In this document: one piece after another, positions 2,575 through 58,428 of the stretch | Layout of the letters: every line of letters begins with the position of its first letter | Position numbering within the stretch: the stretch's first letter is position 1 | DNA from: Patescibacteria group bacterium | GTDB lineage: Bacteria > Patescibacteriota > Minisyncoccia > UBA6257 > GWB1-50-10 | Assembly: GCA_024239035.1 (NCBI GenBank) | Contig: JANBVK010000001.1 | Coordinates: forward strand, 235,010 to 299,009 | DNA: 64,000 nucleotides | Reading direction: 5' to 3' | Position numbers and translations under genes: made by a program | The notes under the pieces: model-generated | Databases searched by the model: none | What the model was told of the DNA's origin: nothing | What the model saw: only the letters and a program-made list of their open reading frames with translations

Positions 2575-4100
<1,526 letters not shown>

Positions 4101-4461
4101 AAAAAATTGGGACAACTAAAAAAGTTTTCAATTCTGGTTCTCCGATTTCACAATATCGGAGGTATATTCATATTTTCAAGTAACATTCGGCTCAATCATA
4201 GTCAAAATAATACACCCACCTCACTCGACATGATCGACGTCTCAAGTGGGGTGGATGTACTAAACTCCAAAGTTCTCTCCAAATTTTACTATCTATGTAC
4301 TATCCATTGTTAGTTTCAGTATAGTGAGTCACCCGTGCTTGTCAATCCCCCACATAAGTACTTATTTTGTGGGGGGTCAACTCCCTAAAACCAAGGGTTT
4401 AGTTGAAAAATTCAGTCTCAGGTGCTAATATTCTTGCAATCTAAACTATGAAACCTAAACC

Positions 4462-4767: not shown

Positions 4768-5448
4768 ATGGAACTTAAAGTTAAAAACCGCATAATTCTT
4801 GGCAAAAAAGTAAAACACCTTCGCGACAAAGGTTTAATCCCTGCTGAACTCTTTGGTCACGGCGTAACGAACAAACACCTGGAGATTCCGGAGAAAGATC
4901 TTATAGATATTTATAAAAAAGCTGGCAGTCACACCATTATCCAGGTGATAACAGAGGAAGGAGAAAAAATACCAGCCCTGATTTCAGAGGTGCAACACCA
5001 TCCCTTATCAAGAAAGCCTCTTAATGTTGATCTCCACCAGATACGAATGGATGAAATTATTGAAACCGGAGTTCCAATTAAATTTAAAGGTGAAGCCCCT
5101 GTCGAGAAAAGTGGATTTTTTGTGATGAGGGTCTTAGATGAAATTGAAATTAAGGCACTGCCGGACAAGATTCCTCACTCTTTTGAAGTAGATCTGTCTA
5201 CTCTTAAAGAAGTTGGCCAGAGCATTAACGTAAACGACATTACTGTTCCTAAAGAAGTTAAAATATTAACTCCTGGAGAAACAGTTATCGCAACCGTAAC
5301 CGAACGCGAAAAAGAAGAAGAGGAAACTTCTTCCCCGGCCGCCGAGGCTACCGAGGTTACTGCTAAGACTACGCCCGAAACCACTGAAACGCCAAGTAAG
5401 CCTACTGAAGCGGAAAAGAAAAAAGAACCGGAGAAATCTAAAAAATAG
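4768..5448 (+). CDS. rplY: Ribosomal protein L25 / general stress protein Ctc, with acidic and Thr/Lys-rich C-terminal tail
   Basis: N-terminal region (LIPAELFGHG...HLEIPEKDL...) and central beta-barrel region are L25/Ctc-like; 226 aa. Confidence 0.75.
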   Translation: MELKVKNRIILGKKVKHLRDKGLIPAELFGHGVTNKHLEIPEKDLIDIYKKAGSHTIIQVITEEGEKIPALISEVQHHPLSRKPLNVDLHQIRMDEIIETGVPIKFKGEAPVEKSGFFVMRVLDEIEIKALPDKIPHSFEVDLSTLKEVGQSINVNDITVPKEVKILTPGETVIATVTEREKEEEETSSPAAEATEVTAKTTPETTETPSKPTEAEKKKEPEKSKK

Positions 5449-5490
5449 TTATTTCTGAAACGTTATCCGCCCCTGTGCTATTATATAAAT

Positions 5491-6948
5491 ATGAGAAGGA
5501 TGTTCGATATAGTTCCCAAACGCCCTAACCGCTTAAACTTCTCTTACTCCAAGCGGTTCTTTTTCCCCTTAAACGCTTTTATGAAAATCACGGTAGCCGT
5601 GCTGGTTCTTCTGCTTTTTACGGGTTCTGTGCAGGCACCGCAAGTAGCCTATTACACCCGCGCGGCCGAAAACGAGGATGGAGAAAACAATAAAACTACC
5701 CAAGAAGAACGGCTGGAACTGGAAAACAAACTCACTGAATTAGAACAGCAAATTGTTGAACACCAAAACACTATTGATGAATATAAGAGACAGGGTAAAA
5801 CTCTAAATAATGAAATCTACGCCCTGAATGCACAAATCGGTCAAATTAATCTCAAGATTAAAGCTATTGGCCTGAATCTTGAGAAACTTAACGTTGATAT
5901 AACCGACACGCAGGCGCAAATCAACCGAAGCGAAAACAAAATTGACAGCCACAAAGTCGCTCTTGGAAAAGGTGTCCGGGATCTCTACGAAGCTGACAAC
6001 GTTGGCCTCATTGAAATTCTCCTGGCTAACAACAGGCTCTCCGATTTCTTCGGCAACATCAATGATATTGCTCTCGTCCAAAATAACCTGCGAATAGACC
6101 TAACAGACATCATAAAACTTCGCCAGGAACTTCTCGAACAAAAACAAGAACTTGCGCTCGAAAAAGAAGATGTCGAAAATCTCAGGACTTACCGAGAATC
6201 CCAAAAACAGACAGTAGCTGTAACAAAGGGAAAGAAAGCAAATCTCCTGGACATAACAAAAGGTAAGGAATCCGAATATCAAAAACTACTCATAGAAACA
6301 AAGAAAACAGCAACTGAGATACGGGGCAGAATTTTTAAATTTCTCGGCGGCGGCGAGCTTACCTTTGAAGAAGCGTATGACTACGCACGCCTCGCAGAAG
6401 GCGCTACCGGCGTACGCGCGGCCTTAGTCCTTGCAATTCTTGACCGCGAATCACTCCTCGGCAAAAATGTAGGCCGCTGCGGTTATAAAACCGCCATGCA
6501 CCCAACGCGCGATATCCCCTATTTCCTCGATATGCTACGACGCTTGAATATTGACCCAGATTCAACCCTGGCAAAGGTATCCTGTCCCAATGCTCACGGT
6601 TCCTATGGTGGTGCTATGGGACCGGCACAATTCATCCCATCAACATGGGAGCTCTATGAAGATAGAGTCGCTAAAGTCACAGGAAACAACCCCGCAAACC
6701 CTTGGAATAATTCAGATGCGTTTGTCGCGACCGCGATCTACATTGAGGATCTTATCGGCTCATCAGGCTGCCAAAGTTACGGAGAAAAAAACAAACACAT
6801 CGTTCCGAAACAAACTCTTATTGAACGGTGCGCTGCTGCTAAGTACTATTCCGGGAAACGGTGGTATACCTACCGTTTCTGGTACGGCGAACCGGTGGTT
6901 ACAAAGGCAAACGAGTTTGAGGAAGATATTAAAATCTTAACTAGCTAG
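5491..6948 (+). CDS. Secreted coiled-coil protein with C-terminal MltB-like lytic transglycosylase domain; probable true start at 5581 (MKITVAVLVLLLF signal peptide)
   Basis: Signal peptide, then a long heptad-rich region (PcsB/EnvC-like coiled coil), then ...GSYGGAMGPAQFIPSTW..., which resembles the AGAMGPMQFMPATW motif of the MltB / Slt35 family. Confidence 0.65.
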   Translation: MRRMFDIVPKRPNRLNFSYSKRFFFPLNAFMKITVAVLVLLLFTGSVQAPQVAYYTRAAENEDGENNKTTQEERLELENKLTELEQQIVEHQNTIDEYKRQGKTLNNEIYALNAQIGQINLKIKAIGLNLEKLNVDITDTQAQINRSENKIDSHKVALGKGVRDLYEADNVGLIEILLANNRLSDFFGNINDIALVQNNLRIDLTDIIKLRQELLEQKQELALEKEDVENLRTYRESQKQTVAVTKGKKANLLDITKGKESEYQKLLIETKKTATEIRGRIFKFLGGGELTFEEAYDYARLAEGATGVRAALVLAILDRESLLGKNVGRCGYKTAMHPTRDIPYFLDMLRRLNIDPDSTLAKVSCPNAHGSYGGAMGPAQFIPSTWELYEDRVAKVTGNNPANPWNNSDAFVATAIYIEDLIGSSGCQSYGEKNKHIVPKQTLIERCAAAKYYSGKRWYTYRFWYGEPVVTKANEFEEDIKILTS

Positions 6949-9915: not shown

Positions 9916-10920
9916 TTATACTGGATCAACGTCTAGGTCTAAATACTGCCAACGTTTCTTCTTAAAATCGCTCTTTCGTAAAATGCCCTCCTGCGCCCCA
10001 ATATGCTCAATAACCGAGGTGGCGTTTGCGCTTGCAAGTCGCAGAGCCCAACAAATATCTTTCTTTTGGATTAAACCAGCGACAAATGCTGAACCAAAGG
10101 CATCACCAGCTCCTGTCCGGTCAATAAGTTTTTTCTCTTTGAAAGTGCCGGCACGATAAAAATATTCTCCATCTGAGACAAATGATCCTCTGGCACCGTC
10201 GGTCATAATGGCTGTGCCGCCAACCATATCTTTAAATTTTTTGAAAATTTTCTTATCCCGCTTATAATCCAAACCTGTTAAATAAGATGCTTCCTCCCGG
10301 TTAATAACCACCACATCAAGACTTTTTAAGAGGGGTTTTAATTTTTGAGCACCCATTTTTAAATAATGTTTAGATGGGTTCATTGCAACCATTGTTCCCT
10401 TCTTCTTTAAATGGGAAATAATCGACTGAATTACGGTAATGGCAATGGTACCCGGTGAAATGTAAGCCCAGCGCGCTTTTAAACTTCTAATCGGTACTTC
10501 TTTTTTTTGAAAATCTCCTGAAGCTCCCCGGTAAACCAAAACGGTCCGCTCGCCTCCTGGTGTCAGAAGAATAGTTGAATAAGCCGTACCGGTTTTCTTG
10601 TCTTTCACGGCTATCGGCGTAACTTTTTCGTTTTTTAGTTCCTTAATTATTGTTTCACCAAACTCGTCACTACCCACTCTCACTAAGGCTGCTGTCCTGA
10701 AACCTTGCCGGCTAAAGGTGATAGAGGTATTAGCCGCCCCGCCGCCGAGGGCAAGGACGGGTTCGTCAATGTTAAGCTTCGTGCCCAACGCGAAACATTC
10801 TGCCTCACCGGTTTTAAAACCAATCTTTTTAAGATGTATTGGATCTCGTAAAACCTTAAAGAACGAGCTTTTCAAAAACACGTCTCGCGTCGCTGTACCT
10901 ATGGTTATTATGTCAAACAT
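9916..10920 (-). CDS. PfkB-family carbohydrate kinase (ribokinase / phosphofructokinase-B-like)
   Basis: C-terminal TGAGDAF anion-hole motif, N-terminal GG dipeptide region, 334 aa. Confidence 0.8.
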   Translation of the reverse strand: MFDIITIGTATRDVFLKSSFFKVLRDPIHLKKIGFKTGEAECFALGTKLNIDEPVLALGGGAANTSITFSRQGFRTAALVRVGSDEFGETIIKELKNEKVTPIAVKDKKTGTAYSTILLTPGGERTVLVYRGASGDFQKKEVPIRSLKARWAYISPGTIAITVIQSIISHLKKKGTMVAMNPSKHYLKMGAQKLKPLLKSLDVVVINREEASYLTGLDYKRDKKIFKKFKDMVGGTAIMTDGARGSFVSDGEYFYRAGTFKEKKLIDRTGAGDAFGSAFVAGLIQKKDICWALRLASANATSVIEHIGAQEGILRKSDFKKKRWQYLDLDVDPV

Positions 10921-20601: not shown

Positions 20602-20653
20602 CTCCCCCTACAGAACGCATTCAGAACTCTGGATTGGGTTGGTATTAGGAAAG
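20602..20653 (+). repeat. Dispersed repeat family R1 (CTCCCCCTACAGAACGCATTCAGAACTCTGGATTGGGTTGGTATTAGGAAAG), copy 1
   Basis: Four copies of a near-identical sequence in this window, all in the same orientation and all intergenic. Confidence 0.85.
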
Positions 20654-20742
20654 GGCTGGGCGCTGTTAGAACTTGTTTAAGGTAAGGAAAAACTCCGAAG
20701 GGCTAAGCGGAGGGTTTGCCGACAATTACTATAAAAGACTGA

Positions 20743-21195
20743 TTAGAAAAACTTTGTTGCTTCCTTGAGAGATTTTACTGTTACCGTAGGATAACCTGTG
20801 GTTTCGTTTGGTAGTTCATTCGCAAATTTACCTCTCTGAATCCAAATAGTTTTGCAACCTTCCGCTATCGGAAATTGGAGCCTTCTCATTATGTCATCTA
20901 TAACTAAAATTTCTTCTGGCTTAAATTTAAAATTGCCGAATGCATTACGGAAAAGAGAATCTTTATCAGAGATATGAAAAAGCGCGAATCGAAAATATTT
21001 CCTAATGTCGTATTCGTCCATCTTCTCAAACCGTCCCTCAATGTCGTCATCAATTGCAAGAGATACTACTGCAAGGGGGTGTTTCTTGGAAGCGTATTCT
21101 AAAACCTCTTTAGTTTCGGGGAAAAGCCTCTCGTTTTCTTTGTCATAAATAGTACGCCCCCAATCGAAAATAATAGCTCTTATATTCTCTATCAT
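20743..21195 (-). CDS. HAD-superfamily-like hydrolase (divergent)
   Basis: N-terminal AIIFDWGRT resembles HAD motif I (hhhhDxDGT) with the second Asp replaced; 150 aa. Confidence 0.4.
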   Translation of the reverse strand: MIENIRAIIFDWGRTIYDKENERLFPETKEVLEYASKKHPLAVVSLAIDDDIEGRFEKMDEYDIRKYFRFALFHISDKDSLFRNAFGNFKFKPEEILVIDDIMRRLQFPIAEGCKTIWIQRGKFANELPNETTGYPTVTVKSLKEATKFF

Positions 21196-21266
21196 TTTAA
21201 ATATACTAGCATTGCCTTCTGTAGAAAGAAAATGTTTTACCTACTCGTCTTAATCTCTTGTGCTAG

Positions 21267-21323
21267 CTCCCCCTACAGAACGCATTCAGCCTGCCCGACC
21301 AGGGAACCTTGGATTAGAATAAG
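21267..21323 (+). repeat. Repeat family R1, copy 2 (with 17-nt internal insertion), 55 nt upstream of the ABC transporter gene
   Basis: CTCCCCCTACAGAACGCATTCAG[cctgcccgaccagggaa]CCTTGGATTAGAATAAG. Confidence 0.8.
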
Positions 21324-21378
21324 ATCAGGGAAGAAATAGCAAGTCTTAGAGTATCATTTAAAGTTACTCTTAGTTATA

Positions 21379-23169
21379 GTGAGGTTTGCAACTATGGTAA
21401 AAAATATTAAACAACTTAGCGGGTGGAGGATTATCTTTAAATATCTCCTCGAATACAAGCGAGAAATTGTTGCTCTCTCGGCTCTCGGGGTTATTTCTGC
21501 TCTTGCAAATGGCACTGTTCCATACATCGTGGGTAGTTTTTTTGATGCAATTCTTGATATGTCGAGCGTGTCATTTAGTACATCAATAATATTACCTTTA
21601 TGGGCAGTATTTTTAATACTCTGGAGTATCGCTCAGGCAGTAGCGAACGTGGTTGATTGGATTATCGGTAAGCAGAGTAGCAAGATAGGTACATTGCTCC
21701 ACGCCACATACCAGTCGAGAGCATTTAGTTACTTGCTCAAATTACCGCTCACCTTCCACGTTCACCATAAGTCGGGTGTGGTTTGGGATAAAATTTCACG
21801 GGCAAGCAATGCACTTTGGGGTATTGTCGAGAGAGTAATTATCACCATTGCACCACAACTTTTGAGCGTTATTGTAGGATTTACCATTGCCTTCTTTATA
21901 CATTCTGTGCTCGCTGTTATTTTGATAATAGGACTCTTACTTTATATCGGGACGTTGTTCAAAATCGTTCCCCCGCTTGTAAAACTCCAAAAAAAGGGAC
22001 ATAAAGCATGGAGTGAGGCATACGGGGATGCACACGATGCTCTTACAAATGTGCAGGCAGTCAAACAATCCACTGCTGAACTCTATGAAAACAAAAAAAT
22101 TAACCGTCGGTTTGTCAGTCAAGCCGCTCGCCTATGGTATAAGATAGAGCAAATCTGGGCTGGAATTAACTTCTACCAGCGAGTTGTAGTTGCGCTTACA
22201 CAACTTACTATATTTGTTCTCGCAGTTCACTTCATACAGGCCGGTGAGCTTACTATTGGGGGTCTCATTGCCCTAAACGGCTACGCAGCGATGATTTTGG
22301 GACCATTCGTGAGACTCGGTTATAACTGGCAGACAATACAAAACGGTGTTGTAGCAATTGAGCGAGCTGAGGAGTTACTCAAAACGCCTACAGAAAATTA
22401 CACGCCCAAGAACTTAATAAAACTTCAAGAATTACGTGGCGATGTAGAGTTCAAAAACGTTTCATTTACTTACAAGAATAACGAACCGGACGTGCTTAAT
22501 AATGTAAGTCTTAAAATTACACAAGGAAAAGTCATCGCTCTTGTGGGAGAGTCAGGTGTTGGTAAAAGCACGGTCGTAGATTTGATATCGGGGTATTATT
22601 TTCCAGACAAGGGCAAGGTGTTGGTTGATGGACACGACATTAAGAAGCTGGATTTAGAGTTTTTAAGAAAAAATATCGCTGTTGTTCCTCAGGAAATTGT
22701 GCTCTTTAACGATACTATCAAAACCAACATCAAGTATGGTAATTTTGGGGCAACCGATGAAGAAGTAGAAAAAGCGGCAAAGGCAGCACACGCAGATATT
22801 TTTATTGAAAAGTTCCCCAAAAAGTACAATCAGGTTGTAGGAGAACGAGGTATCAAGCTCTCAGTAGGACAAAAACAGCGTGTGGCAATTGCACGAGCGA
22901 TACTCAGAAACCCTAGAATCCTCATTCTTGATGAACCCACAAGCGCACTTGATGTAAAAACAGAACAGTTTATTGCAGAATCTCTTAAAACTCTTATGGA
23001 GGGAAAAACAACGTTTATCATCGCTCATCGTTTAAGCACGGTGAGGAATGCTGATAAAATAATTGTTTTTGATAAAGGGAAGGTAGTTGAGAAAGGTAGG
23101 CACGAAGAATTGATACAGAAGGATGGTGTATACCAACGTCTCTACAAACTCCATGTTGGGTTACGGTAA
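21379..23169 (+). CDS. ABC transporter, fused permease/ATPase (type I exporter, MsbA/ABCB-like)
   Basis: Six-TM N-terminal domain, then Walker A GESGVGKST, signature LSVGQKQR and Walker B ILILDEPTSALD. Confidence 0.9.
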   Translation: MRFATMVKNIKQLSGWRIIFKYLLEYKREIVALSALGVISALANGTVPYIVGSFFDAILDMSSVSFSTSIILPLWAVFLILWSIAQAVANVVDWIIGKQSSKIGTLLHATYQSRAFSYLLKLPLTFHVHHKSGVVWDKISRASNALWGIVERVIITIAPQLLSVIVGFTIAFFIHSVLAVILIIGLLLYIGTLFKIVPPLVKLQKKGHKAWSEAYGDAHDALTNVQAVKQSTAELYENKKINRRFVSQAARLWYKIEQIWAGINFYQRVVVALTQLTIFVLAVHFIQAGELTIGGLIALNGYAAMILGPFVRLGYNWQTIQNGVVAIERAEELLKTPTENYTPKNLIKLQELRGDVEFKNVSFTYKNNEPDVLNNVSLKITQGKVIALVGESGVGKSTVVDLISGYYFPDKGKVLVDGHDIKKLDLEFLRKNIAVVPQEIVLFNDTIKTNIKYGNFGATDEEVEKAAKAAHADIFIEKFPKKYNQVVGERGIKLSVGQKQRVAIARAILRNPRILILDEPTSALDVKTEQFIAESLKTLMEGKTTFIIAHRLSTVRNADKIIVFDKGKVVEKGRHEELIQKDGVYQRLYKLHVGLR

Positions 23170-23186
23170 ACTTTTATATCCTCGGT

Positions 23187-23305
23187 CAGGACTCAAACCG
23201 ATCGGCTCGAAACCTGCTTAAACGAATCAATTATCCATTGTCCTCACTTTGTCCACATATGTGGACAAAGTGAGGACACAGCAGATCTGCTTGAAAATCA
23301 AATCA
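23187..23305. repeat. Composite repeat family R2/R3, copy A: a roughly 50-nt block (CAGGACTCAAACCGATCGGCTCGAAACCTGCTTAAACGAATCAAT), a 38-bp perfect palindrome GTCCTCACTTTGTCCACATATGTGGACAAAGTGAGGAC (23240-23277), and a conserved tail ACAGCAGATCTGCTTGAAAA
   Basis: Seen directly. The palindrome core TTGTCCACA / TGTGGACAA is a 1-mismatch DnaA-box-like 9-mer in inverted orientation. Confidence 0.85.
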
Positions 23306-23341
23306 AGTTAAGAAAAGACGCACAAGAAGAGTTAAATCTAT

Positions 23342-24073
23342 TTAGTTTCTAAAAAGAAGGGTAGCGCCAATGGCTGCACCGTTTTCTTGAAGGGCAGATT
23401 TTTTTGTTTTACATTTTACCCCTCGTTTTATTAGTTCGGTTTTTAATTTAACAAAGAGGTTTTTCTTCCCCTTTTTGATAACTCCACCGCCGAATATAAT
23501 GGTATCCGGTTTGTAATATTTTATAATCGGCAGTAAGTGTTGAGCGATAAAAATTGTAAGCCTTATCTTTTTTCCGCTTCTTATTTTTTGGTATTGTTTT
23601 TCCCACTTTTCAGGATATTCAAATCTTTTTATCTTTTTCACCCTCCCATTTTTTACGAAAGCTCTTCCAATGCCTGTGCCTAACGTAATTACTAAAAGAT
23701 TTTTTGATTTTTTTCCAGCGCCCAATAAATATTCTCCTTTAGCAAAAGCCCTGGCGTCGTTATCCACTTTTAGTTTTAAGGATCGCGGAAAAATGCCCGC
23801 GAGATCCATTTTTTTAAGATAGGGAATATTAGGACTAAAAACTATAGTGTTTTTATTAATTACTCCGGCAGAGCCCACGCCTATTTTTGATACTCGATGA
23901 CCTTTCTGTAAAAATTTATTGGTAATTTCGTGAAGGATTTTTATAAACTCGCTTTTGTTTAGCGGGGTTTTCTTCTCATAAGAGGCCTTAATCCTTTTGC
24001 CATCCCATAAGATAGCTCTTATTTTTGAGCCGCCAATATCAATACCTATAATATCGCTTTTATGCGTCCTCAT
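23342..24073 (-). CDS. ROK-family sugar kinase / transcriptional-regulator-like ATPase; start probably at 24073 (MRTHKSDIIGIDIGGSKI)
   Basis: IGIDIGGSKIR is an actin-like ATPase phosphate-1 motif typical of ROK/glucokinase. The ORF track extends to 24136, but the M at 24073 gives a sensible 62-nt divergent intergenic gap. Confidence 0.7.
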   Translation of the reverse strand: MRTHKSDIIGIDIGGSKIRAILWDGKRIKASYEKKTPLNKSEFIKILHEITNKFLQKGHRVSKIGVGSAGVINKNTIVFSPNIPYLKKMDLAGIFPRSLKLKVDNDARAFAKGEYLLGAGKKSKNLLVITLGTGIGRAFVKNGRVKKIKRFEYPEKWEKQYQKIRSGKKIRLTIFIAQHLLPIIKYYKPDTIIFGGGVIKKGKKNLFVKLKTELIKRGVKCKTKKSALQENGAAIGATLLFRN

Positions 24074-24135
24074 CTTTTCTATTGTAACAAACGCAATAAT
24101 AGTATTTATCTCTATTTGCCACTGGGCGTGATACA

Positions 24136-25365
24136 ATGGAACATGTTAATATTCATGAAACTGTGAAAAAGCTCCTGGACGATAACATAAAAGACGCTGT
24201 TTTGAAACTCATGCTTAAAAATAGACGGCAGGCCGGGGAATATCAGTACACGCTCCCATCCACCGAGACGTACCCCTATCAGTGGCTATGGGATTCCTGT
24301 TTTCATGCCATTATTTTAAACCATTTCAGCGCGGACGATGCTCAAAAAGAGATTTTGTCATTTCTTTCTAAACAATTCGACAACGGCCTTATTCCTCATA
24401 TGATCTATTGGGAAAAAGCGGATGTTTTTAATATTAATTGGGGCACTGAAGGGACCAGCAGCATCACCCAGCCTCCGATGGTTGCCTATGCGGTGTGGCG
24501 AATCTTTCAAAAAAATGGAGATGAAAAGTTCCTAAGGAAGGTGTATCCGAATCTTTTTCATTTTTACAAATATTTAATCAATGAAAGAGATCCACATGAA
24601 CAAAATCTCGTTGGCATCATAACTCCAGACGAATCTGGTGAAGATAATTCACCTCGCTTTGACGAACCCCTTGGTCTTCCCCCCATCCATTCCAGAAAAA
24701 CGAACTTCAAAAGAAGGCTCAAATTAATCGATGAAAATAGGAAATGCAATTTTGATGCACCGTTCTGTATGAAAAACTTCTTCTGGGTAAAGGACGTTCC
24801 CTTTAATGCGATTATGGTGGAAAACTTAAAATGCCTCGCTCACATTGCTGAGCGACTCGGTCATGACTATGATGCCGAATACTTTGGCAAACAGCGGCAA
24901 GAAATCATTGACGCGATGCGTGAACTTATGTTCGAAGATGGCATATTCTGGACAACCTATGGCGAAGATTACAAAAAAATTAAAGTAAAAACATGGGCGC
25001 TCTTTGCGCCACTCTTTGCAAAAATCCCCACACAAGAAGAGGCTGAACTACTGGTGAATACGTATCTTCTCAATAAGGAAGAATTTTGGACAGAGTATCC
25101 CCTCCCCACTGTTTCTCTCGGAGAACCGTCATTTAATGCTGAAGGATATTGGCGTGGTCCCACATGGTTTGCTCCAAATTGGTTCATCTATAAGGGGCTT
25201 ATCCAGTATGGCTTCATGGATATAGCTTCCAAACTTAAAAATAGTTCTCTCAAACTTCTTAAGAAATCAGGTTTCCGTGAACAATTCAATCCCCAAACAG
25301 GAAAAGGTCTTGGGGCAAAAGAATTCACCTGGGGCGGACTGATCATTGATATGAATGACACATAA
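24136..25365 (+). CDS. Six-hairpin glycoside hydrolase (GH63 / GH37 trehalase-like)
   Basis: YPYQWLWDSCFH resembles trehalase signature 1 (Y-x-W-D-x-Y). YWRGPTWFAPNW resembles signature 2 (Q-W-D-x-P-x-G-W-A-P). Confidence 0.55.
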   Translation: MEHVNIHETVKKLLDDNIKDAVLKLMLKNRRQAGEYQYTLPSTETYPYQWLWDSCFHAIILNHFSADDAQKEILSFLSKQFDNGLIPHMIYWEKADVFNINWGTEGTSSITQPPMVAYAVWRIFQKNGDEKFLRKVYPNLFHFYKYLINERDPHEQNLVGIITPDESGEDNSPRFDEPLGLPPIHSRKTNFKRRLKLIDENRKCNFDAPFCMKNFFWVKDVPFNAIMVENLKCLAHIAERLGHDYDAEYFGKQRQEIIDAMRELMFEDGIFWTTYGEDYKKIKVKTWALFAPLFAKIPTQEEAELLVNTYLLNKEEFWTEYPLPTVSLGEPSFNAEGYWRGPTWFAPNWFIYKGLIQYGFMDIASKLKNSSLKLLKKSGFREQFNPQTGKGLGAKEFTWGGLIIDMNDT

Positions 25366-25426
25366 TCTTTCGATGAATTGAAAAAAATGAAAGCCCGTGC
25401 CCACACCAGACCTTGGCTCCCCCTAC

Positions 25427-25468
25427 AGAACGCGTTCAGAACTCTGGATTGGGCTGTTATTAGGAAAG
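25427..25468 (+). repeat. Repeat family R1, copy 3
   Basis: CTCCCCCTACAGAACGCGTTCAGAACTCTGGATTGGGCTGTTATTAGGAAAG. Confidence 0.85.
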
Positions 25469-25564
25469 AATTGGCAGCGTCGCCTGCTTTTGTATAGAAA
25501 AAGACCGCCCGAAGGAGGTCTTCCTTTGAGCGGTTTGTTGTTTTCATGGGATAGAGCGTAGACG

Positions 25565-26122
25565 TCAATTTGCCTTTAGCGATTTCCCATACGCTGCGAT
25601 TACGATGATGAAACTGAAGGCTTGTTGGAGTGCCAGAAGTGGATATTCCTGCATCCACATCAGAGTTCCTGCAGACCCGTTCATTAGTAGATACCAAGGC
25701 CACCCCGTTGGATTCTTTCTAGCAAGAAGATATGTCCCGACGAGAAATCCAATCGCAACACCAAGCTCCAACGCCTGAGTGAGCGTCACAAGTCCACCAA
25801 AGACGTACAAGCTAACACCAATTCCAACGAACGTCATTACTATTGCGAAAGTATTGAGCCACTCTGGTTCCTTACCACTACCACGAAGGGCAATAATTAG
25901 CCCGAGAACCATTGATGGCGCACCTCCGCCCTCGACAAAGATGAGAATCAAATCACTTTCAATGAAAAAGATTACCATCCACATTGGAAGACCGATAAGA
26001 TATGCTATCCATCCAGAGATTCTCCAGCGACGCCCACAAACTGACTCATCTCCCTCTGCAATGAGGAGGAAGACTTTTTGCAGAAGATAGCCGAGACCAG
26101 CAAATGCTTCGACGACTCCCAT
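25565..26122 (-). CDS. Small polytopic membrane protein, possibly a PnuC-like transporter
   Basis: 185 aa, Trp-rich TM helices (NPTGWPWYLLMNGSAGTLMWMQ) reminiscent of the PnuC family; weak. Confidence 0.35.
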   Translation of the reverse strand: MGVVEAFAGLGYLLQKVFLLIAEGDESVCGRRWRISGWIAYLIGLPMWMVIFFIESDLILIFVEGGGAPSMVLGLIIALRGSGKEPEWLNTFAIVMTFVGIGVSLYVFGGLVTLTQALELGVAIGFLVGTYLLARKNPTGWPWYLLMNGSAGTLMWMQEYPLLALQQAFSFIIVIAAYGKSLKAN

Positions 26123-26199
26123 TGCAACCTCCTCTCAAGTGTTCTGTTAAAATATCTAGTAGAGATTATATCAGATATTTAGAATACGTCAAGTAATAG

Positions 26200-26250
26200 C
26201 TCCCCCTACAGGACGCGTTCAGAACTCTTGATTGGATTGGGATTAGGAGA
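26200..26250 (+). repeat. Repeat family R1, copy 4
   Basis: CTCCCCCTACAGGACGCGTTCAGAACTCTTGATTGGATTGGGATTAGGAGAG. Confidence 0.85.
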
Positions 26251-26335
26251 GATTTAGAAACTATAGTTGGTTTTATAAAAATGGAAAAGGCGGGTGCAGT
26301 TTGTCACTGACCCGCCCTCTCTGCTGTATTCGCTA

Positions 26336-26815
26336 TTAGAAAATGAACCTAATAGACCGTTCCTCAATGATGCGTATCTGGATGGTCTCTATGGGCTCAT
26401 TAAGCCGAAGCGCTTTACCTACGACGGCTCGCATGAAACAGTGGCCCTCCGAGCTTCCGGTGATCTCCATAGTAGATTCGAGCCACCCGTCGAGTCCTTC
26501 ACGTTCGCCCCTGCGAAGTAGCGGTCGTAATGTCTGCAGCAGCTCCCCACCAGTTTCCTCGCGCCTCTTTGATTCCTCATTGATACACAGAAGGCACGCG
26601 GACAAGCCATCTTCGAAGCCGATGTGAGGCCTCTGGTGTTTCTCGCAGTAGAGACCTGACTTGATCGCACAAGGGACACAGCTAGTGAGCTTATCGTTCC
26701 CGCGTGCTTTAGGGAGAAGCACGATTACTTCAGGATCTTTACCGCAGATCTCGCATCCCGCTAGTGTCTCAGACATATAGGTTAATCCTTTTCCGATAGT
26801 TGGTAAAATATTCAA
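26336..26815 (-). CDS. Cys-rich hypothetical protein (zinc-ribbon-like CxxC pairs)
   Basis: CEICGK...CVPCAI...CEKH...CLLC spacing suggests two zinc knuckles; 159 aa. Confidence 0.45.
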   Translation of the reverse strand: MNILPTIGKGLTYMSETLAGCEICGKDPEVIVLLPKARGNDKLTSCVPCAIKSGLYCEKHQRPHIGFEDGLSACLLCINEESKRREETGGELLQTLRPLLRRGEREGLDGWLESTMEITGSSEGHCFMRAVVGKALRLNEPIETIQIRIIEERSIRFIF

Positions 26816-26872
26816 AGAGCAAAAACAAGATACTACACTACATGGTAGTCCGTCAATACCTAGCTCCGCGAG

Positions 26873-27320
26873 CAGGACTCAAACCGATCGGCCTGAAACC
26901 TACTTAAACAAATCAATCACTGCTGATTCTAACTGTCCTCACTTTGTCCACATACGTGGATAAAGTGAGGACACGGTAGATCTGCCTGAAAACCGAAAAA
27001 TTAATTTAAAACTGTAACCGGGTGGCCGGTAAAGAGCGGAGTATTTACGACGTCGCCCAAATTGCACGGCTCGCCCACGTAGAGAGCAAATTCCACTTCC
27101 CTGCCCAATAAATCACTAGACACTGCAGTGCCGCTCAAAGAAGAAAAGTGCGTTTCGTACTGCCAGCTGCTTATTTTTTCTTAGCGAGGAACAAGCTTAG
27201 AAAAACAAGTATCCCGAGCGAGTCTCAAACGAATGTGAGAGACGACGAGGGACTACCAAATATTGATTCGGAAAGAAACTAACGAAAAATGAGCCAGTCG
27301 ATTGGCTTATTTTTCGGATT
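26873..27320. repeat. Composite repeat family R2/R3, copy B: the 50-nt block, a palindrome at 26935-26972 (GTCCTCACTTTGTCCACATACGTGGATAAAGTGAGGAC), a CCGGTAAAGAGCGGAGTATTTAC block, a roughly 225-nt insert, and a terminator-like block AACGAAAAATGAGCCAGTCGATTGGCTTATTTTTCGGATT (27279-27320)
   Basis: Shares the 50-nt block and tail with copy A, and shares the CCGGTAAA.AGCGGAG block and the terminator block with copy C. Confidence 0.85.
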
Positions 27321-27598
27321 AAATAATACACAACAATTTCGAATCCCAGCCCGGCAGCCAGTTAGTGGGAGGTTCAAGTGACCTGATTGGTTCACAAATC
27401 TCACTAATTTCTATTATTCATAAATTTGTTAAAATAAGACTACGAATACAGTTGAGAAAAAAGTATGGTCAGAATATTTTCAACAAATTCTTGATGTTAA
27501 AAGGACTTTTGAACTTAGACTGAACAATTTTGAAATTAATGAAGGCGGTAAAGCCGCAACGTGTTAAAGAGGTGGAAGATGACTCAACCTAATTCGTT

Positions 27599-29320: not shown

Positions 29321-29451
29321 TAAGGGGGTGTGTCTCATTTGTCTCATTTACCATATAACACCCCTGACCCGAGTGGGTTGATTCTCGTGCTATAATAGCT
29401 TCAAAGAACCCCCTAAACACCCCCATTAAAACAAATCACCTTTATTTTCAT

Positions 29452-29628
29452 GTCCTCAATATGTCCACGTATGTGGATAAATTGAGGACAAATGAAATCC
29501 GCTCTGATAATCAATGTCTCCTACTCAACAAATTATCAATTGGAAACGGTAACTGGGTAGCCGGTAAAAAGCGGAGAATTTACTGCAAACGAAAAATGAG
29601 CCAGTCAATTGGCTCATTTTTCGGATTG
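29452..29628. repeat. Composite repeat family R2/R3, copy C: palindrome GTCCTCAATATGTCCACGTATGTGGATAAATTGAGGAC (29452-29489), a CCGGTAAAAAGCGGAGAATTTAC block, and a terminator-like AACGAAAAATGAGCCAGTCAATTGGCTCATTTTTCGGATT (29586-29625)
   Basis: Direct comparison with copy B; the terminator hairpin TGAGCCagtcaattGGCTCA has an A-run and a T-run on either side, so it could terminate in both directions. Confidence 0.85.
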
Positions 29629-29964
29629 TGGTTTTATACGATAAACCACTCCTCTACCAATTTTGCCCACTTGTTCCACGCCACCTTCTTTTTCGAGCTC
29701 CTCCATATAGCGGGCAACAGACCTGCGAGAGATACCTAAAACCTCACGAATATCGGAATTGGTAAGTTCTGGCCGCTCTTTAAGGAGTTCAAGGATTCTC
29801 ACTTTGTTCTTATTCTTCCTAACAGTTCTGTCTAGTGCGATATTACAAATTCCCGCAAACTCTTTCGCGGTGGTTGTGTCATGCTTTTTTGCCTCACTAC
29901 AAGACAACCAGAACAGGATAAACAAAAGGGCAACAAAGAGAAAAAGAAAGATTAATAAATTCAT
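29614..29964 (-). CDS. Membrane-anchored winged-helix (HTH) transcriptional regulator
   Basis: N-terminal TM (LLIFLFLFVALLFILFWL), then a C-terminal HTH (LTNSDIREVLGISRRSVARYMEELEKEG). Confidence 0.6.
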   Translation of the reverse strand: MNLLIFLFLFVALLFILFWLSCSEAKKHDTTTAKEFAGICNIALDRTVRKNKNKVRILELLKERPELTNSDIREVLGISRRSVARYMEELEKEGGVEQVGKIGRGVVYRIKPQSEK

Positions 29965-30014
29965 GCTTTAAATTTATACCTGCTTTAGCTATCGTGTCAG
30001 ATCCTGCCGAGGTT

Positions 30015-30512
30015 TTAAATTTTCTTAAAAAGTTCGGTATCCATTATTCTCCACCACATCATTTCCTCGCTTACTTTGTATCTCTGAGCCAGTGATTTCA
30101 CATCTTTAATTCCTTCTGCAAAATCTCTTTTCAAAAAATCAATTGGCACTAAAAGCTCTGCCGCAAATTTGTTTACGGCTGTTTCTTCGGGATTCTTAGA
30201 ATTGAAATCATCACCATTATTTCGCAAATCGGCATGTCCCAATATCAGATGCCCTAATTCGTGTGCAATTGTAAATCGTTGACGATGTGGGTGATGATCT
30301 CGATTGTATGCAATTACATGTTTTTTGTTTTTGCTAATATGCGCGCCGGAAACCTTATTGATAAAAGAATGCGACACGAGTTCAATTATAATCTTTCGCT
30401 TCCTGCTAATATGTTGAATAACTTCTTTAATACCAATAGGAGGGTTATTTATTTGTAGTTCACTGATAATTCGACGCGCTAATTTTTGTGGGAATTGTAT
30501 TTTACTTTTCAT
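30015..30512 (-). CDS. ImmA/IrrE-family (COG2856, DUF955) zinc metallopeptidase
   Basis: HEXXH motif in context: FTIAHELGHLILGH. 165 aa; the start overlaps the methyltransferase stop by 4 nt. Confidence 0.75.
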   Translation of the reverse strand: MKSKIQFPQKLARRIISELQINNPPIGIKEVIQHISRKRKIIIELVSHSFINKVSGAHISKNKKHVIAYNRDHHPHRQRFTIAHELGHLILGHADLRNNGDDFNSKNPEETAVNKFAAELLVPIDFLKRDFAEGIKDVKSLAQRYKVSEEMMWWRIMDTELFKKI

Positions 30513-31864
30513 AATTTCTTTTTAAGTATATCGATTGAATATTGAAGTTTTCGCTCTTCTTCTACTGTCAACCCCTGTTCAGACCTAAAAGCGACCTTAA
30601 CTACTGGATCATTTCTTTTAACAACGGTTCCTCCGTAACTTAATGGGAACCTTCTATCTATCAATTTTGGCTCAATCGCTTGATTGAGCACTTGTTTTAT
30701 TTCAAAAACATTTGCACGAGAACTTTTCTTTGTCGAATCAATTATAATAACAAACTCCGTATTGTGTCCTCTATCCTCTACGTTGACCCCAGAATATCTT
30801 TGTGAACTTACTCTATATCGTTTATATTTCTTAAGCACTATGTCGAGGTATCCTTTATCAGCAAACATATCTAACAGCGTATTGAAATTTACCAAACCAT
30901 CCGTGGAGTAACTTATTAAAATAAATCTGGCTTTTAATTTACTGATTAATTCTCTAAATGCTTCTGTGGCCGTATCTCGATAGCAATAGAAGCTCTTTCT
31001 CTCGGTTCGCCAATCCAATCTGATAGCCGATTTGTTGACCGTTTTGCCATTGACCAAAATCTCTTTGTTAATTTTTGGTTTATCCCAGAGGTCAATAGTG
31101 CTCAAAAGATGGTAATTTGAACCATATTGATGTTGATTATATGGAGGGTCTATATAAGCAATATCGCACTTAATATTAGAAGCCAACTCATTTGCGTCCT
31201 CTTTATATACGTTATTTTCTTTACCGTTATTGTGAAAAAGTGGCGGCTCAATCGTTAATCGACTTCTGATTCTATAGAGAGCAGTGCTCGTTGATCCACC
31301 CCACCCCCGATGATAGGCCTTGAAAACACCTGAGGTATTACTGCAGTAAGCTCCTTGAAAAATTAGTGGCGCTAACAAAACTCGCATCTCACTTTCATTG
31401 ATAGTTCCATCCTCTCTCCACTCTCGTATCTTTTCTCTGATCGCATCAATTCGTCGACCGTTCTCTTGCGTATAGAACATACGTTCTTTATCAGGGTTAG
31501 GATTTTCATCATTTGCTGGGCAATAGTACGTAGCAATATAGCCTTTGATTGGTTTGAGATTATTCAAAATACCAAACGCCTTCTGCATTCCGCCTAATTT
31601 TCTAAATGTTGGCGGGCGGTTTCGTTTAATATAGGTATGGTTGATCGTATAAGAATACGGCTCCCAATCATTACTAATGACTTGGTAGCCAAAAACTTTG
31701 GCTAATCTTGATATCACACCGCTACCTGCGAATACATCAAAAAACACGCCGGAGTTCACGCCAGTTTTGCGAACCGCTTGTTCAATAAGAGGCACTAACC
31801 GCCTTTTGTTCCCTATATAGGGTATGAGCTGATTATATGTAAAACTATCTTGATTGCGCGGCAT
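30509..31864 (-). CDS. N6-adenine DNA methyltransferase (Dam-like D12 class) of a type II restriction-modification system
   Basis: IPYIGNKRRL (Dam KWAGGK-equivalent region), FAGSGVIS (FxGxG SAM-binding motif) and catalytic DPPY. Confidence 0.8.
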   Translation of the reverse strand: MPRNQDSFTYNQLIPYIGNKRRLVPLIEQAVRKTGVNSGVFFDVFAGSGVISRLAKVFGYQVISNDWEPYSYTINHTYIKRNRPPTFRKLGGMQKAFGILNNLKPIKGYIATYYCPANDENPNPDKERMFYTQENGRRIDAIREKIREWREDGTINESEMRVLLAPLIFQGAYCSNTSGVFKAYHRGWGGSTSTALYRIRSRLTIEPPLFHNNGKENNVYKEDANELASNIKCDIAYIDPPYNQHQYGSNYHLLSTIDLWDKPKINKEILVNGKTVNKSAIRLDWRTERKSFYCYRDTATEAFRELISKLKARFILISYSTDGLVNFNTLLDMFADKGYLDIVLKKYKRYRVSSQRYSGVNVEDRGHNTEFVIIIDSTKKSSRANVFEIKQVLNQAIEPKLIDRRFPLSYGGTVVKRNDPVVKVAFRSEQGLTVEEERKLQYSIDILKKKL

Positions 31865-31865
31865 A

Positions 31866-33383
31866 TTATCTTTGAGTTTGGGTATCCCTTATGAGGTTAT
31901 GCCAAAGTTTCTCTACATTAATGATCGGAATTTTGATCTTTTTCTTAGTAGTATAGATGTCATTCGGATAATTGCTGATCCATGCAGCTACAAATCTTGA
32001 TCGGGTAATATCGTCTTTCGGAGACTCGTGCGCACTAAACTCGAATGCATCATATTCTGCCTCAATTTCAAATAGTCGACCTTTATAACTATCAACATTT
32101 TGAATGATATCATGACGGATCGAAAATAAGTCCATTAAATCCAAAGATTTAAGTGATTTATTAAACCTTTCAGCAGGAACGAGGTCATCTAAATAAATAC
32201 AAAGGAGATCTGGATAGGCCGTATCCACCCGCACCACGAGAATTATCTTTTCTTCTTTGTCTTGTTTAACCTTAAGAGCTTTAGCTAAGCTTAGATTTTC
32301 TATATAGGAAATAACATTTACTTCTTGGTTTGCCTCTTTATACTTTTTAATAAGTTTAATTTTGTCCTCGAACGTACTTGTAATTTGGGCATGTAGCTGT
32401 TCTCTATATTTTTTGAGACGAGCGTTTTGAAATGGCGCGGTGTATGGAGCTTTACTAATGTCCTCAATTTTATTTAACTTGTGATATTCCGCGAGCGGGA
32501 GTATTGGTTGGCCTGTTTTGAAATATAACCATTCCTCACCGTTTTTAGGCTTAATAAAAAAGTAAAAGATATTAGCGGCGTCAGGTTCTAATTTTTTAAA
32601 CACTAAATTATCGAGGACTCGAAACGGGATAGTGTAAAAATCTTTATATTCCAAATCATCTGTTAATATTTTGAAAACAAAATTCGGGCAGTTTTGATGG
32701 TAGATAAAACTTTTTGGTATCGAGTAATAAATCCTCGGATGAGATTTAAGTATCTCCTCATAAGGTATCGTCGGATACGGAATATAAATATGTTCGCGCT
32801 TGTTGGTTTCAAAACAAGCCTTCCGTTGCTCAAAAAAATATTGAGACACTTTCCTGCCGCTGTTTGATATCTCTTGGATCACTGCACGCTTCGGCCACTT
32901 TTTATCATAATCTCGCAATTTAAATTCTTGAGTTTTGCGATCCAAGAAAACCTGTAACGCTTTCTCTACTTCTTGTTTGAATGCTTCAAACTTTTTATTG
33001 CTGACTTTCGTGATGTTTGTAAATTGAGGTTCAACATCACCGTCCGATCGAACCCTAAAAAGCAGGATACCATCTTTTATTGGTCTAAATAAAATCTCAG
33101 GTAACCTGTAGTAGTAATCATCAGAACCTCTAACAAGACCTATCGCATTGAGAACCATTGAAATGTTGCCGGGGAGCCCCCGTAAAAATGAGCGAATCTT
33201 TTTTTCTGGTACTGACCTACCAATACCCATCATCATTCCGATATAAGCAGGGTTGTCGCGAAAAAACTTTAGAATGTCATTAGTTGAAAATCGATTTGCT
33301 TTCAGCTTGCCATGTTGGACAAAAATGAGAAACTTTAATGGGACGCGGTCTTTTTTAATAACCATGGTTTGGGGATTATCCAC
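31866..33383 (-). CDS. Putative cognate restriction endonuclease (505 aa hypothetical), 1 nt upstream of the methyltransferase gene
   Basis: Position and tight coupling to the methyltransferase; no conserved motif expected or seen. Confidence 0.45.
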   Translation of the reverse strand: MDNPQTMVIKKDRVPLKFLIFVQHGKLKANRFSTNDILKFFRDNPAYIGMMMGIGRSVPEKKIRSFLRGLPGNISMVLNAIGLVRGSDDYYYRLPEILFRPIKDGILLFRVRSDGDVEPQFTNITKVSNKKFEAFKQEVEKALQVFLDRKTQEFKLRDYDKKWPKRAVIQEISNSGRKVSQYFFEQRKACFETNKREHIYIPYPTIPYEEILKSHPRIYYSIPKSFIYHQNCPNFVFKILTDDLEYKDFYTIPFRVLDNLVFKKLEPDAANIFYFFIKPKNGEEWLYFKTGQPILPLAEYHKLNKIEDISKAPYTAPFQNARLKKYREQLHAQITSTFEDKIKLIKKYKEANQEVNVISYIENLSLAKALKVKQDKEEKIILVVRVDTAYPDLLCIYLDDLVPAERFNKSLKSLDLMDLFSIRHDIIQNVDSYKGRLFEIEAEYDAFEFSAHESPKDDITRSRFVAAWISNYPNDIYTTKKKIKIPIINVEKLWHNLIRDTQTQR

Positions 33384-33708: not shown

Positions 33709-33797
33709 CCCCGTACAATTACACCGCTCGCGCTATCCGAGCGCAAAAGACACGAAGTGGCGGTGTAATTATACGGGATCAAGACAAATCTTCCATC

Positions 33798-33892
33798 GTC
33801 TTCACTTTGTCCACATATGTGGATAAACTGAAGACATGTTCCGTAAATTGAGTTGTCCTCACTTTATCCACATATGTGGGGCTTTTGAAGAC
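33798..33892. repeat. Two tandem palindromes of family R3 (33798-33835 GTCTTCACTTTGTCCACATATGTGGATAAACTGAAGAC; 33855-33892 GTCCTCACTTTATCCACATATGTGGGGCTTTTGAAGAC) in the divergent promoter region of the PaaX-like regulator gene
   Basis: Each contains perfect TTATCCACA / TGTGGATAA DnaA-box 9-mers. Confidence 0.85.
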
Positions 33893-33924
33893 AGATAATA
33901 TTGTTATAATTCGGTAACACAAAA

Positions 33925-53139: not shown

Positions 53140-53264
53140 CTAAAATCAATACGCAGCATTTTATGACCAAGCGTTCTAACGTCGTTCTTACAGCACTCAC
53201 TACGTCAATCTTCCTGGGAGCACTATTCTCTCCCACAACACCCACGCACGCACATGGAGTCTGA
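53140..53264 (+). pseudogene. Duplicated 5' fragment (promoter-proximal 25 nt plus first 33 codons) of gene 56388-56930
   Basis: AATACGCAGCATTTTATGACCAAGCGTTCTAACGTCGTTCTTACAGCACTCACTACGTCAATCTTCCTGGGAGCACTATTCTCTCCCACAAC... is near-identical to 56360-56470. It encodes MTKRSNVVLTALTTSIFLGALFSPTTPTHAHGV and then a stop. Confidence 0.7.
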
Positions 53265-53268
53265 CACA

Positions 53269-53421
53269 ATGTTTGAAACAATAAAGCAAATCCTTACTTT
53301 AACTTTAAAATCAAGGAAGATCTGGTTAATTCCTCTCCTTCTTTTACTAGTCATTATCGCCCTACTTGTTATCGGCGCATATGTCTCCCCTGTTCCTATA
53401 TTTATCTACCCAATAATATGA
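53269..53421 (+). CDS. Micro membrane protein (50 aa), coupled (ATGA) to the next small ORF
   Basis: My own reading: MFETIKQILTLTLKSRKIWLIPLLLLLVIIALLVIGAYVSPVPIFIYPII; below the ORF-track size cutoff. Confidence 0.4.
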   Translation: MFETIKQILTLTLKSRKIWLIPLLLLLVIIALLVIGAYVSPVPIFIYPII

Positions 53422-53615: not shown

Positions 53616-53617
53616 AA

Positions 53618-56337: not shown

Positions 56338-56387
56338 AATCGGTGTGTTAAAATCAGTATACGCAGCATTTAATCCTCTTTCAATTT

Positions 56388-58425: not shown

Positions 58426-58428
58426 AAA

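Follow-up and report, generated by a model that had tools for sequence, protein, structure and literature searches.

A co-oriented intergenic repeat in a Patescibacteria genome as the probable attachment half-site of a large serine recombinase acting at tRNA-Asn

In the staphylococcal cassette chromosome (SCC) elements, the target gene rlmH (orfX) stays functional, co-oriented attachment (att) repeats stand between tandem cassettes, and the cargo is rich in defence functions. The large serine recombinases (LSRs) of these elements, the Ccr proteins, insert cassettes at the 3′ end of rlmH and also mobilise tandem SCC-like cassettes that have further att sites and no recombinase of their own (PMC11470126). 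The SSV1-type ("suicidal") integrases of archaea have their att site inside their own gene and a tRNA gene as target, so that the integrase gene is split around the insert; remnants of the recombinase stay behind in chromosomes ("gene capture"), and self-disrupting recombinases were described in a 2021 review as exclusive to archaea (PMC8371274). The tycheposons of Prochlorococcus and other tandem islands arise by repeated insertion at one tRNA gene, whereby older elements are pushed outward and decayed remnants accumulate (10.1101/2020.12.28.424599, PMC4383910); the 2014 Islander paper stated that no serine-family integrase was known to use a tRNA gene as target (PMC4383910). Here we analyze a short repeat that occurs four times within 5.6 kb of a Patescibacteria contig (JANBVK010000001.1), of which a stretch of 64,000 nucleotides, referred to as the window, was inspected as a whole. 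Comparison with related loci makes it probable that these repeats are the P′ halves of an LSR attachment site (attP), left as junction scars of cassettes that were serially inserted beside a tRNA-Asn gene.

A search of the whole 64 kb with CTCCCCCTACAGAACGC, allowing up to three mismatches, returned four matches, all on the plus strand, at 20602, 21267, 25417 and 26200, whereas 0.11 matches are expected by chance and none of 100 shuffled sequences reached four. A profile built from 122 related copies found these four sites only (20602-20666, 21266-21347, 25416-25477 and 26199-26265). All copies lie between open reading frames (ORFs) and split the region into gene units, as a previous sequence-only reading of this DNA had listed them; its four plus-strand intergenic copies hold, except that the third starts at 25417 and not at 25427. 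The second half of the unit likewise recurs in the window. Conservation begins at (G)CTC, one base before the edge drawn by that reading, and extends over about 65 nt, becoming weaker towards the 3′ side. The insertion in copy 2, formerly given as a 17-nt hairpin, is real but comprises 15 nt (GCCTGCCCGACCAGG), is in frame, and can form a stem of 3-4 bp at most, which leaves the term hairpin poorly founded.

The sequence of the repeat reads as protein, which the sequence-only reading had missed: On the plus strand it forms a 5′-truncated open frame, LPLQ[DN]AFRT[IL]DW followed by xx[IV][KR]x[ED]L, with a stop codon 24-41 codons further on. Relatives were collected from metagenomes with a back-translated amino-acid pattern, which yielded at least 120 contigs carrying the unit; figures for related loci in the following refer to the matches listed, 123 loci, which together with the window make 124 sources. 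Because this pattern forces the first 11 codons, the coding test was restricted to the unconstrained downstream part: Of 120 non-redundant copies, 119 have no stop codon in frame 0 for 12 or more codons past the searched pattern, compared to 13 and 19 copies for frames 1 and 2. Moreover, in the same copies, the second position of codons i, i+4 and i+7 is almost always T and third positions are variable, a pattern that is the signature of a translated amphipathic helix. Pfam and PHROGs searches with seven short repeat peptides gave nothing usable. When one genome per species was scanned, the motif appeared in three metagenome-assembled genomes (MAGs), one of which is labelled Patescibacteria and the other two just "bacterium", and in two of the three a second, diverged copy follows on the same strand about 1.4 kb away; viral contigs scanned with the back-translated pattern gave 0 matches.

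Such an open frame might suggest that each copy is a free-standing small gene for a peptide of 25-40 residues. We consider this scarcely credible, as the unit contains no start codon, neither a start codon nor a ribosome-binding site is conserved, a stop codon stands 0-10 codons upstream in most copies, and the upstream sequence is unconserved. A structured RNA, one of the options of the sequence-only reading, is not supported either: Rfam gave no match at the four sites at gathering scores or at E≤1, the four copies fold on neither strand more stably than their shuffles (z -0.54 to +1.40), and the variation is codon-like. The unit also lacks any internal inverted repeat. As a further candidate, a tRNA fragment was rejected, since ARAGORN reports no tRNA in the window and the unit is without a T-arm fold.

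What the open frame belongs to becomes apparent from loci in which it is not truncated. In L060/L067, L006, L123 and the NCBI protein P0003, the motif continues the reading frame of ..EKRQLLNFLLQNC.L.GK.L.FELKTPFDTVL.ANKCSNML. A profile of the EKRQLLNFLLQNC-type region matches 3140 proteins, the full-length ones (492-509 aa) at their extreme C-terminus. These full-length matches bear Resolvase, Recombinase and Zn_ribbon_recom domains and are therefore large serine recombinases. Their tails are of the type ..L[PR]GxDSN[LPQ].., which corresponds to the antisense translation of a tRNA T-arm, whereas the motif or one of its variants, L[PR]xx[DN]x[FVI]RTxxW, forms the end of many shorter C-terminal fragments. 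The reading frame runs unbroken across the core in L006, L060/L067, L123, P0003 and L122; in L008 and L043 it is split with the frame kept. The homology to LSR 3′ ends can be regarded as established, and the repeat would accordingly represent the extreme 3′ end of LSR genes of about 500 codons.

The integrated state is most complete in L008 (Table 1). Between its LSR gene and its motif, which lies 10.2 kb away in the same orientation, are genes for a DNA methylase, a Res-type endonuclease and a DUF3800 protein as well as unknown genes, together a type III restriction-modification island; past the motif, two-component-system genes of the host follow. The CTC of the core is a codon in the same frame in both the LSR gene and the motif, so that joining the two at the core rebuilds ..NCSTLL-PLQNAFRTLDWKEIKQDLELF.., and this in turn would place attP inside the 3′ end of the LSR gene. 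Comparison of the reconstructed L008 LSR with solved structures is uninformative with regard to the tail, as only the catalytic domain matches, namely that of TP901-1 integrase. Judged by its gene order (motif, PnuC-like gene, second motif, 97-codon LSR C-terminal remnant, tRNA-Asn), L043 is in all appearance a miniature of the L008 arrangement. In L122, a more distant full-length LSR of 557 aa (5220-6893) retains a tail of the native type, LLRAWNKVRTWYF, in intact form and is followed downstream by a second LSR, a layout that is what would be predicted for a tandem state. Cognate LSRs within motif-bounded elements are thus found in L008 and L122 and as a fragment in L043.

Where the recombinase would cut is indicated by the left edge of the unit. 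Across 155 unique junctions, the left flank carries no more than 0.21 bit at any position, and with the G of GCTC conservation jumps to 1.4-2.5 bits at GCTCCCCC; this jump is a recombination junction and not a deletion edge. The consensus of the motif, GCTCCCCCTACAGGACGCGTTCAGAACC, and that of the antisense tRNA-Asn 3′ end, GCTCCGCGGGTAGGATTCGAACC, have GCTCC and AGGA in common, and the core GCTCC is present in all 11 distinct tRNA-Asn 3′ ends. By contrast, the blocks TTC and GAAC are displaced outward in the motif relative to the tRNA end, by 4 and 5 nt respectively, a shift that concerns short blocks without formal statistics and is to this extent a weak point of the case. For serine integrases, the distal zinc-ribbon domain (ZD) motif of attP stands 5 bp further out than that of attB (PMC3783163). 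By this rule, the outward position of the blocks is suggestive of the motif being an attP-type half and the tRNA-Asn end an attB-type half.

This partial likeness to a tRNA could also be explained in the classical manner, by island att repeats that are displaced tRNA 3′ ends from elements with a tyrosine integrase. Islands stacked in tandem at tRNA genes are a familiar phenomenon (PMC4383910), related arrays do adjoin tRNA-Asn, and the 8-nt core GCTCCCCC together with an AGGA block is common to the unit and some tRNA-Asn 3′ ends. Past the core, however, only 14 of 28 ungapped positions match the tRNA, so that the unit is not a tRNA copy and instead runs on as LSR coding sequence. Moreover, the sole recombinase of the L008 element is an LSR, and no Phage_integrase family is on record for any gene of the island in the window. 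An origin as classical tRNA-island repeats is hence very unlikely.

The arrangement of the copies in related loci adds a second line of evidence. Two or more copies occur in 42 of the 124 sources, and in each of these 42 loci every copy is on one strand; spacing ranges from 318 to 4150 nt with a median of about 1030, and the number of copies reaches five, within 2.4 kb, in L092. In 12 loci a tRNA-Asn gene follows in antisense orientation 350-2550 nt past the last copy, in L008 at the distance given above, and in a few loci tRNA-Gln or tRNA-His takes the same position. The same types of flank abut motifs and tRNA ends: In L098, a single flank type is found at the tRNA as well as at three motifs. 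Of 53 cassettes, 51 have their longest ORF antisense to the motif and hence co-directional with the tRNA, so that a cassette read in the direction of the tRNA consists of promoter, gene, terminator and P′. A variation of content at the motif is seen in the pair L054 and L112, whose sequences agree at 99.7% identity for 3877 nt, a stretch that reaches into the motif, and are unrelated beyond it; this is a single case of a strain-level difference in content.

These arrays also speak to the view that the unit is a selfish intergenic repeat of the kind of repetitive extragenic palindromes (REP) or miniature inverted-repeat transposable elements (MITE), spread by transposition or replication slippage and not defining cassettes. 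While the unit is indeed short, intergenic, multi-copy and widespread in metagenomes, it has neither terminal inverted repeats nor a palindrome, and possesses one sharp edge only. Its invariable co-orientation, the fixed polarity of the cargo and the confinement of the copies in the window to one stretch of 5.6 kb are likewise at odds with such an element, which we regard as extremely unlikely. The REP-type alternative raised earlier for the window copies is discarded on the same grounds, since the unit is non-palindromic, clustered and of fixed polarity relative to the tRNA gene.

The polarity of the cargo can be turned into an argument for another explanation, in which the unit is a minus-strand regulatory or RNA element of the cassette genes, situated upstream of the next promoter or 3′ after the previous terminator, and its likeness to a recombinase is incidental. 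On the minus strand, three of the four copies in the window do stand between the end of one minus-strand gene and the start of the following one, copy 4 has a strong promoter-like site at a distance of 7 nt and copy 1 at 40 nt, and the near-uniform antisense orientation of the cassette genes would fit as well. A -35/-10 pair that begins 10-12 nt away from the core is present at 26 of 148 junctions, visible in the left flank as a -35-like GTCAA or GTCAA(T) block. Yet these promoter modules also adjoin tRNA ends that have no motif, at copies 3 and 4 a terminator-like hairpin separates the upstream gene from the unit, and several loci have the unit joined in frame to an LSR gene. Together with the codon-like variation on the plus strand and the negative Rfam and folding results, this makes a regulatory element unlikely. 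The former statement that the repeat is not a promoter holds for the repeat itself, but has to be amended in that promoters of neighbouring minus-strand cassette genes often abut its left edge. The GTCAA(T) block was also considered as a hidden P arm or recombinase determinant and rejected, being confined to those 26 flanks and behaving like the -35 box of the neighbouring gene.

Two further features of the flanks are recorded here. The left flanks of L015, L019, L038, L055, L094 and L105 contain a conserved module of about 65 nt at the right ends of cassettes of one lineage, in which a -35/-10 pair is accompanied by a palindrome, ATATCCTATATTAGGATAT; the module has the appearance of a promoter-operator in shared use, which would imply a common regulator for different cassette genes. 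In L001 (4480-4510), L113, L120, L031 and others, a hairpin, AAAAAACCGCCTTCTTGGCGATTTT, directly precedes an extended -10 element (TGGTAGAAT, other strand). This hairpin is terminator-like, takes the position of the -35 box and recurs upstream of many genes across Patescibacteria contigs.

We return to the LSR half-site, for which the following course of events may be proposed. An LSR would recombine attP, composed of P, core and P′, with the 3′ end of tRNA-Asn serving as attB. The attP would lie inside the 3′ end of the LSR gene itself, such that P′ at the same time codes for the C-terminal 25-40 residues of the LSR (LPLQDAFRTxDW and the amphipathic helix), while the acceptor stem and T-arm of tRNA-Asn would provide the B′ half. 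With GCTCC as common core, crossover would take place within GCTC, about at the discriminator base. Upon integration, the body of the LSR gene would come to read antisense into the tRNA gene and thereby gain a tRNA-encoded tail (..RGxDSNL..), whereas P′ would move to the far end of the insert and abut the sequence that formerly followed the tRNA gene. With the core and the tRNA half regenerated and the left (downstream) arm apparently not read, the same tRNA end could be used again, so that new inserts would stack beside the tRNA. Each new insert would displace the older ones outward, which should result in a co-oriented array of units composed of promoter, gene, terminator and P′. The array in the window would since have lost its recombinase, with the tRNA end left as a decayed remnant at 26863 and, less recognisably, at 23175.

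What carries this proposal is the homology to LSR 3′ ends, the sharp junction, the split gene of L008 and L043, the geometry and polarity of the arrays, and the single difference in content at the motif, all of which we treat as observed. The att-like cassette boundary, another option of the sequence-only reading, is supported by the sharp junction, the co-oriented arrays, the linkage of LSR genes and tRNA-Asn in related loci, and the near-identical contig pair that differs from the motif onward. By contrast, serial integration as the origin of the four units in the window and the use of only one specific half-site are steps that we infer. The same applies to the recombinase-less cassettes, which may have been moved in trans or may have been left behind when a separate unit of P′ and LSR, as in L043, was excised.

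Several points weigh against this reading. None of the 150 best matches of the LSR C-terminal profile has the native tail in a full-length protein. Characterised LSRs require two specific half-sites, unlike the situation here, with a left arm that shows no conservation; between P′ and the P arms encoded in LSR genes, dyad symmetry is weak, as assessed by eye in L006, L060 and L008, with the GAAC block alone being mirrored and only in two of these three sequences. An unconserved left arm is, on the other hand, expected for attL, and the arms are also variable between cassettes. Among loci with at least 3 kb of sequence past the last copy, merely 4 of 31 have a tRNA-Asn gene there. L008 is the only fully intact integrated element seen, and L054/L112 is the only independent case of strain variation among the loci. 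The metagenome sample is biased, as its members had to match the forced 11-codon pattern and come from among the matches listed. Within the 64 kb of the window there is neither an LSR gene (tblastn with six full-length LSRs gave chance matches only) nor an intact tRNA gene according to ARAGORN, so that the mechanism at this locus is read across from its relatives. Finally, the open frame kept by copies that have no recombinase and the strict polarity of the cargo are not accounted for by the proposal.

The anatomy of the window can be described in terms of four units (Table 1). The site at 26863 matches the antisense tRNA-Asn consensus at 19 of 23 positions, is the sole such site in the window, and is equalled in none of 30 shuffles; it has the predicted orientation and lies 600 nt to the right of copy 4. 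For cassette C, a counterpart exists in L014, where a PnuC-like homologue with 48% identity resides in a motif-bounded cassette of 815 nt, as compared to 783 nt in the window. The dnaG-rpoD-tRNA-Asn synteny found in L098 is absent from the window. Exact-protein look-ups of the flanking SpoU and FtsZ genes, intended for strain comparison, gave no match, and an exact look-up of the PnuC-like protein returned the same genome only (ENA ERZ23499938 scaffold_1, 729 kb) and one Logan contig.

Table 1. Features of the window and of the related locus L008. P′ assignments, tRNA-like remnants and promoter-like sites are predictions.
Sequence	Feature	Coordinates	Strand	Remarks
Window	Unit A	20601-21265		P′, then HAD-like gene (-)
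Window	Copy 1, putative P′ half-site	20601-20685	+	54 bits; core CCTC instead of GCTC; open frame LPLQNAFRTLDWVGIRKGLGAVRTCLR, then TAA
Window	HAD-like protein, 150 aa, cargo of cassette A	20743-21195	-	Antisense to motif; HAD_2 E=1e-3, under the Pfam cut-off
Window	Unit B	21266-~23174		Decayed P′, then ABC exporter (+)
Window	Copy 2, putative decayed P′	21266-21347	+	44 bits; in-frame 15-nt insertion at 21289-21303; TGG>TAG at 21315-21317
Window	ABC exporter (ABC_membrane and ABC_tran), cargo of unit B	21379-23169	+	Motif orientation, the minority arrangement
Window	Decayed tRNA-like sequence	23175-23231	+	Right end of unit B; 87% to 26865-26917; core TATCC instead of GCTCC
Window	ROK and glycosidase genes	23342-25365		Belong to no unit
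Window	Unit C	25416-26198		P′, terminator-like hairpin, PnuC-like gene (-), promoter-like site
Window	Copy 3, putative P′	25416-25497	+	58 bits; open frame LPLQNAFRTLDWAVIRKELAASPAFV, then TAG
Window	PnuC-like membrane protein, 185 aa, cargo of cassette C	25565-26122	-	NMN_transporter E=5e-4, below the Pfam threshold
Window	Promoter-like site of PnuC-like gene	26165-26192	-	TTGACG-16-TATAAT, 11/12; 7 nt from core of copy 4; right end of cassette C
Window	Unit D	26199-26862		P′, hairpin, Cys-rich gene (-), promoter-like site
Window	Copy 4, putative P′	26199-26310	+	64 bits; open frame LPLQDAFRTLDWIGIRRDLETIVGFIKMEKAGAVCH, then TGA
Window	Cys-rich protein, cargo of cassette D	26336-26815	-	No Pfam match
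Window	Promoter-like site of Cys-rich gene	26827-26856	-	TTGACG-18-TATCTT; abuts tRNA-like remnant
Window	Decayed antisense tRNA-Asn 3′-end-like sequence	26863-26917	+	GCTCCGCGAGCAGGACTCAAACC...; located where the B′ arm (tRNA) stands in related arrays
L008	tRNA-Asn(GTT)	23-95	+	
L008	LSR, 505 aa	56-1573	-	Antisense into tRNA-Asn
L008	Motif	10243-10275	-	LSR orientation, 10.2 kb away

Other repeats and fragments are found in the neighbourhood of the array. A perfect 40-nt palindrome, TGTCCTCACTTTGTCCACATATGTGGACAAAGTGAGGACA, occurs in five intergenic copies (23239-23278, 26934-26973, 29451-29490, 33797-33836 and 33854-33893), which divide the island between 23 and 34 kb into gene blocks, two of them directly after the tRNA-like remnants; Rfam yields only chance miRNA matches for this palindrome, and it does not occur in the 123 related loci. 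A hairpin-forming direct repeat of 40 nt (27281-27320 and 29588-29627, 95% identical) surrounds a 2.3-kb block with a 573-aa ORF without Pfam match, which may be another insertion. At 27339-27365 on the plus strand, to which a 9-aa tblastn match had led, lies an isolated, unrelated tRNA 3′ fragment with CCA, TTCGAATCCCAGCCCGGCAGCCA, which resembles the end displaced by a classical island with a tRNA gene as target. A block of low GC content (0.37; 29614-33383), situated between the cassette array and ftsZ/ftsA, encodes a helix-turn-helix (HTH) protein, a Peptidase_M78 protein (ImmA/IrrE-like), a D12-class DNA methyltransferase and a 505-aa ORF, and is probably a restriction-modification or defence module. 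The Logan contig L125, from an independent assembly of this genome, ends at about 25488 of the window, some 10 nt from copy 3, and at about 33827, inside the palindrome pair; such breaks are expected of repeats that cause branches in the assembly graph or differ within the population.

To the left of copy 1, two adjacent ORFs of 80 and 83 aa on the minus strand (19964-20206 and 20240-20491) are paralogous, forming repeat D8 with 72% DNA identity, and have no Pfam match. Further upstream, the GC-rich segment 18380-18650 contains no convincing ORF and no Rfam match; part of it (18616-18641) is similar to positions 4081-4106 (repeat D14), where the 16S rRNA gene has its 5′ edge. At the other end of the window, the repeat families D1, D3 and D6 (53157-62710; several copies with 60-76% identity) suggest tandem paralogous genes.

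How does the proposed system relate to those that have been described? SCC/SCCmec appears to be the closest by analogy: Both combine an LSR (there CcrAB or CcrC), the 3′ end of a conserved housekeeping gene, which remains functional, as target, tandem cassettes that are in part recombinase-less, and co-oriented att repeats. They differ in that the target is a protein gene in SCC and a tRNA gene here, and in that the repeated att encodes the end of the target gene there and the tail of the recombinase here. SCC cassettes moreover measure 20-70 kb, whereas those considered here are mostly single genes of about 1 kb in a Patescibacteria host, and the system is known from sequence alone. With the SSV1-type integrases it would share an att site within the coding sequence of the recombinase and two gene parts flanking the insert, as we read L008 and L043; those enzymes, however, are tyrosine recombinases of archaea, whereas the proteins described here have serine recombinase domains and come from Patescibacteria MAGs. 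Furthermore, SSV1-type integration leaves two large inactive gene parts, while in the present case only the last 25-40 codons would be lost and a tRNA-encoded tail gained.

Islands at tRNA genes resemble the arrays in the serial insertion at one tRNA gene, the displacement of older inserts and the accumulation of att remnants, but depend on tyrosine recombinases and leave true partial tRNA repeats, in contrast to an LSR and a match limited to the core and short blocks. Integrons (IntI, attI, attC) are similar in having ordered, small, single-gene cassettes with one site at a fixed end and a common orientation. Here, on the contrary, there is no IntI, attI or Pc promoter, the recombinase is of the serine type with no tyrosine recombinase on record for the genes of the island, the site is not an attC-type hairpin, as the folding scores given above indicate, and the cassettes have promoter-like and terminator-like signals of their own. 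The canonical phage sites of A118/LI, Bxb1 and phiC31 agree with ours in a half-site of about 25 bp, a shared inner block and a distal block located about 5 bp further outward in attP (PMC3783163), yet possess two recognisable half-sites as opposed to one conserved half. A literature search for a Patescibacteria or candidate phyla radiation (CPR) serine recombinase, or for an LSR with a tRNA gene, retrieved no previous description of this system, a result that is provisional given incomplete coverage of the literature. To our knowledge, the att sites of characterised phage serine integrases lie beside the integrase gene and not inside it.

Going one step further, we tentatively put forward a bolder scenario, which we hold to be possible although doubtful: The tRNA-Asn locus of Patescibacteria might host an integron-like capture platform run by an LSR, in which the C-terminal coding segment of the enzyme itself serves as cassette half-site through which recombinase-less, self-promoted single-gene cassettes are captured, stacked and exchanged. 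The swap between the native helix and the tRNA-encoded peptide at each integration or excision might then switch the activity or direction of the enzyme. If true, tail-swapping as a directionality switch is an idea that can be tested directly. A compact system composed of a site of about 65 nt and one enzyme, with apparently only one specific half-site, would also be of interest to engineers of serine integrases.

For the recombinase family, the proposed explanation, if true, would mean that serine integrases do target a tRNA gene, which in 2014 was stated as not known (PMC4383910), and that a bacterial recombinase can have its attachment site inside its own gene, an arrangement described in 2021 as restricted to archaea (PMC8371274). 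For the organisms, it would provide a concrete mechanism for the turnover of accessory genes in reduced Patescibacteria genomes, in which self-promoted cassettes are stacked at tRNA-Asn.

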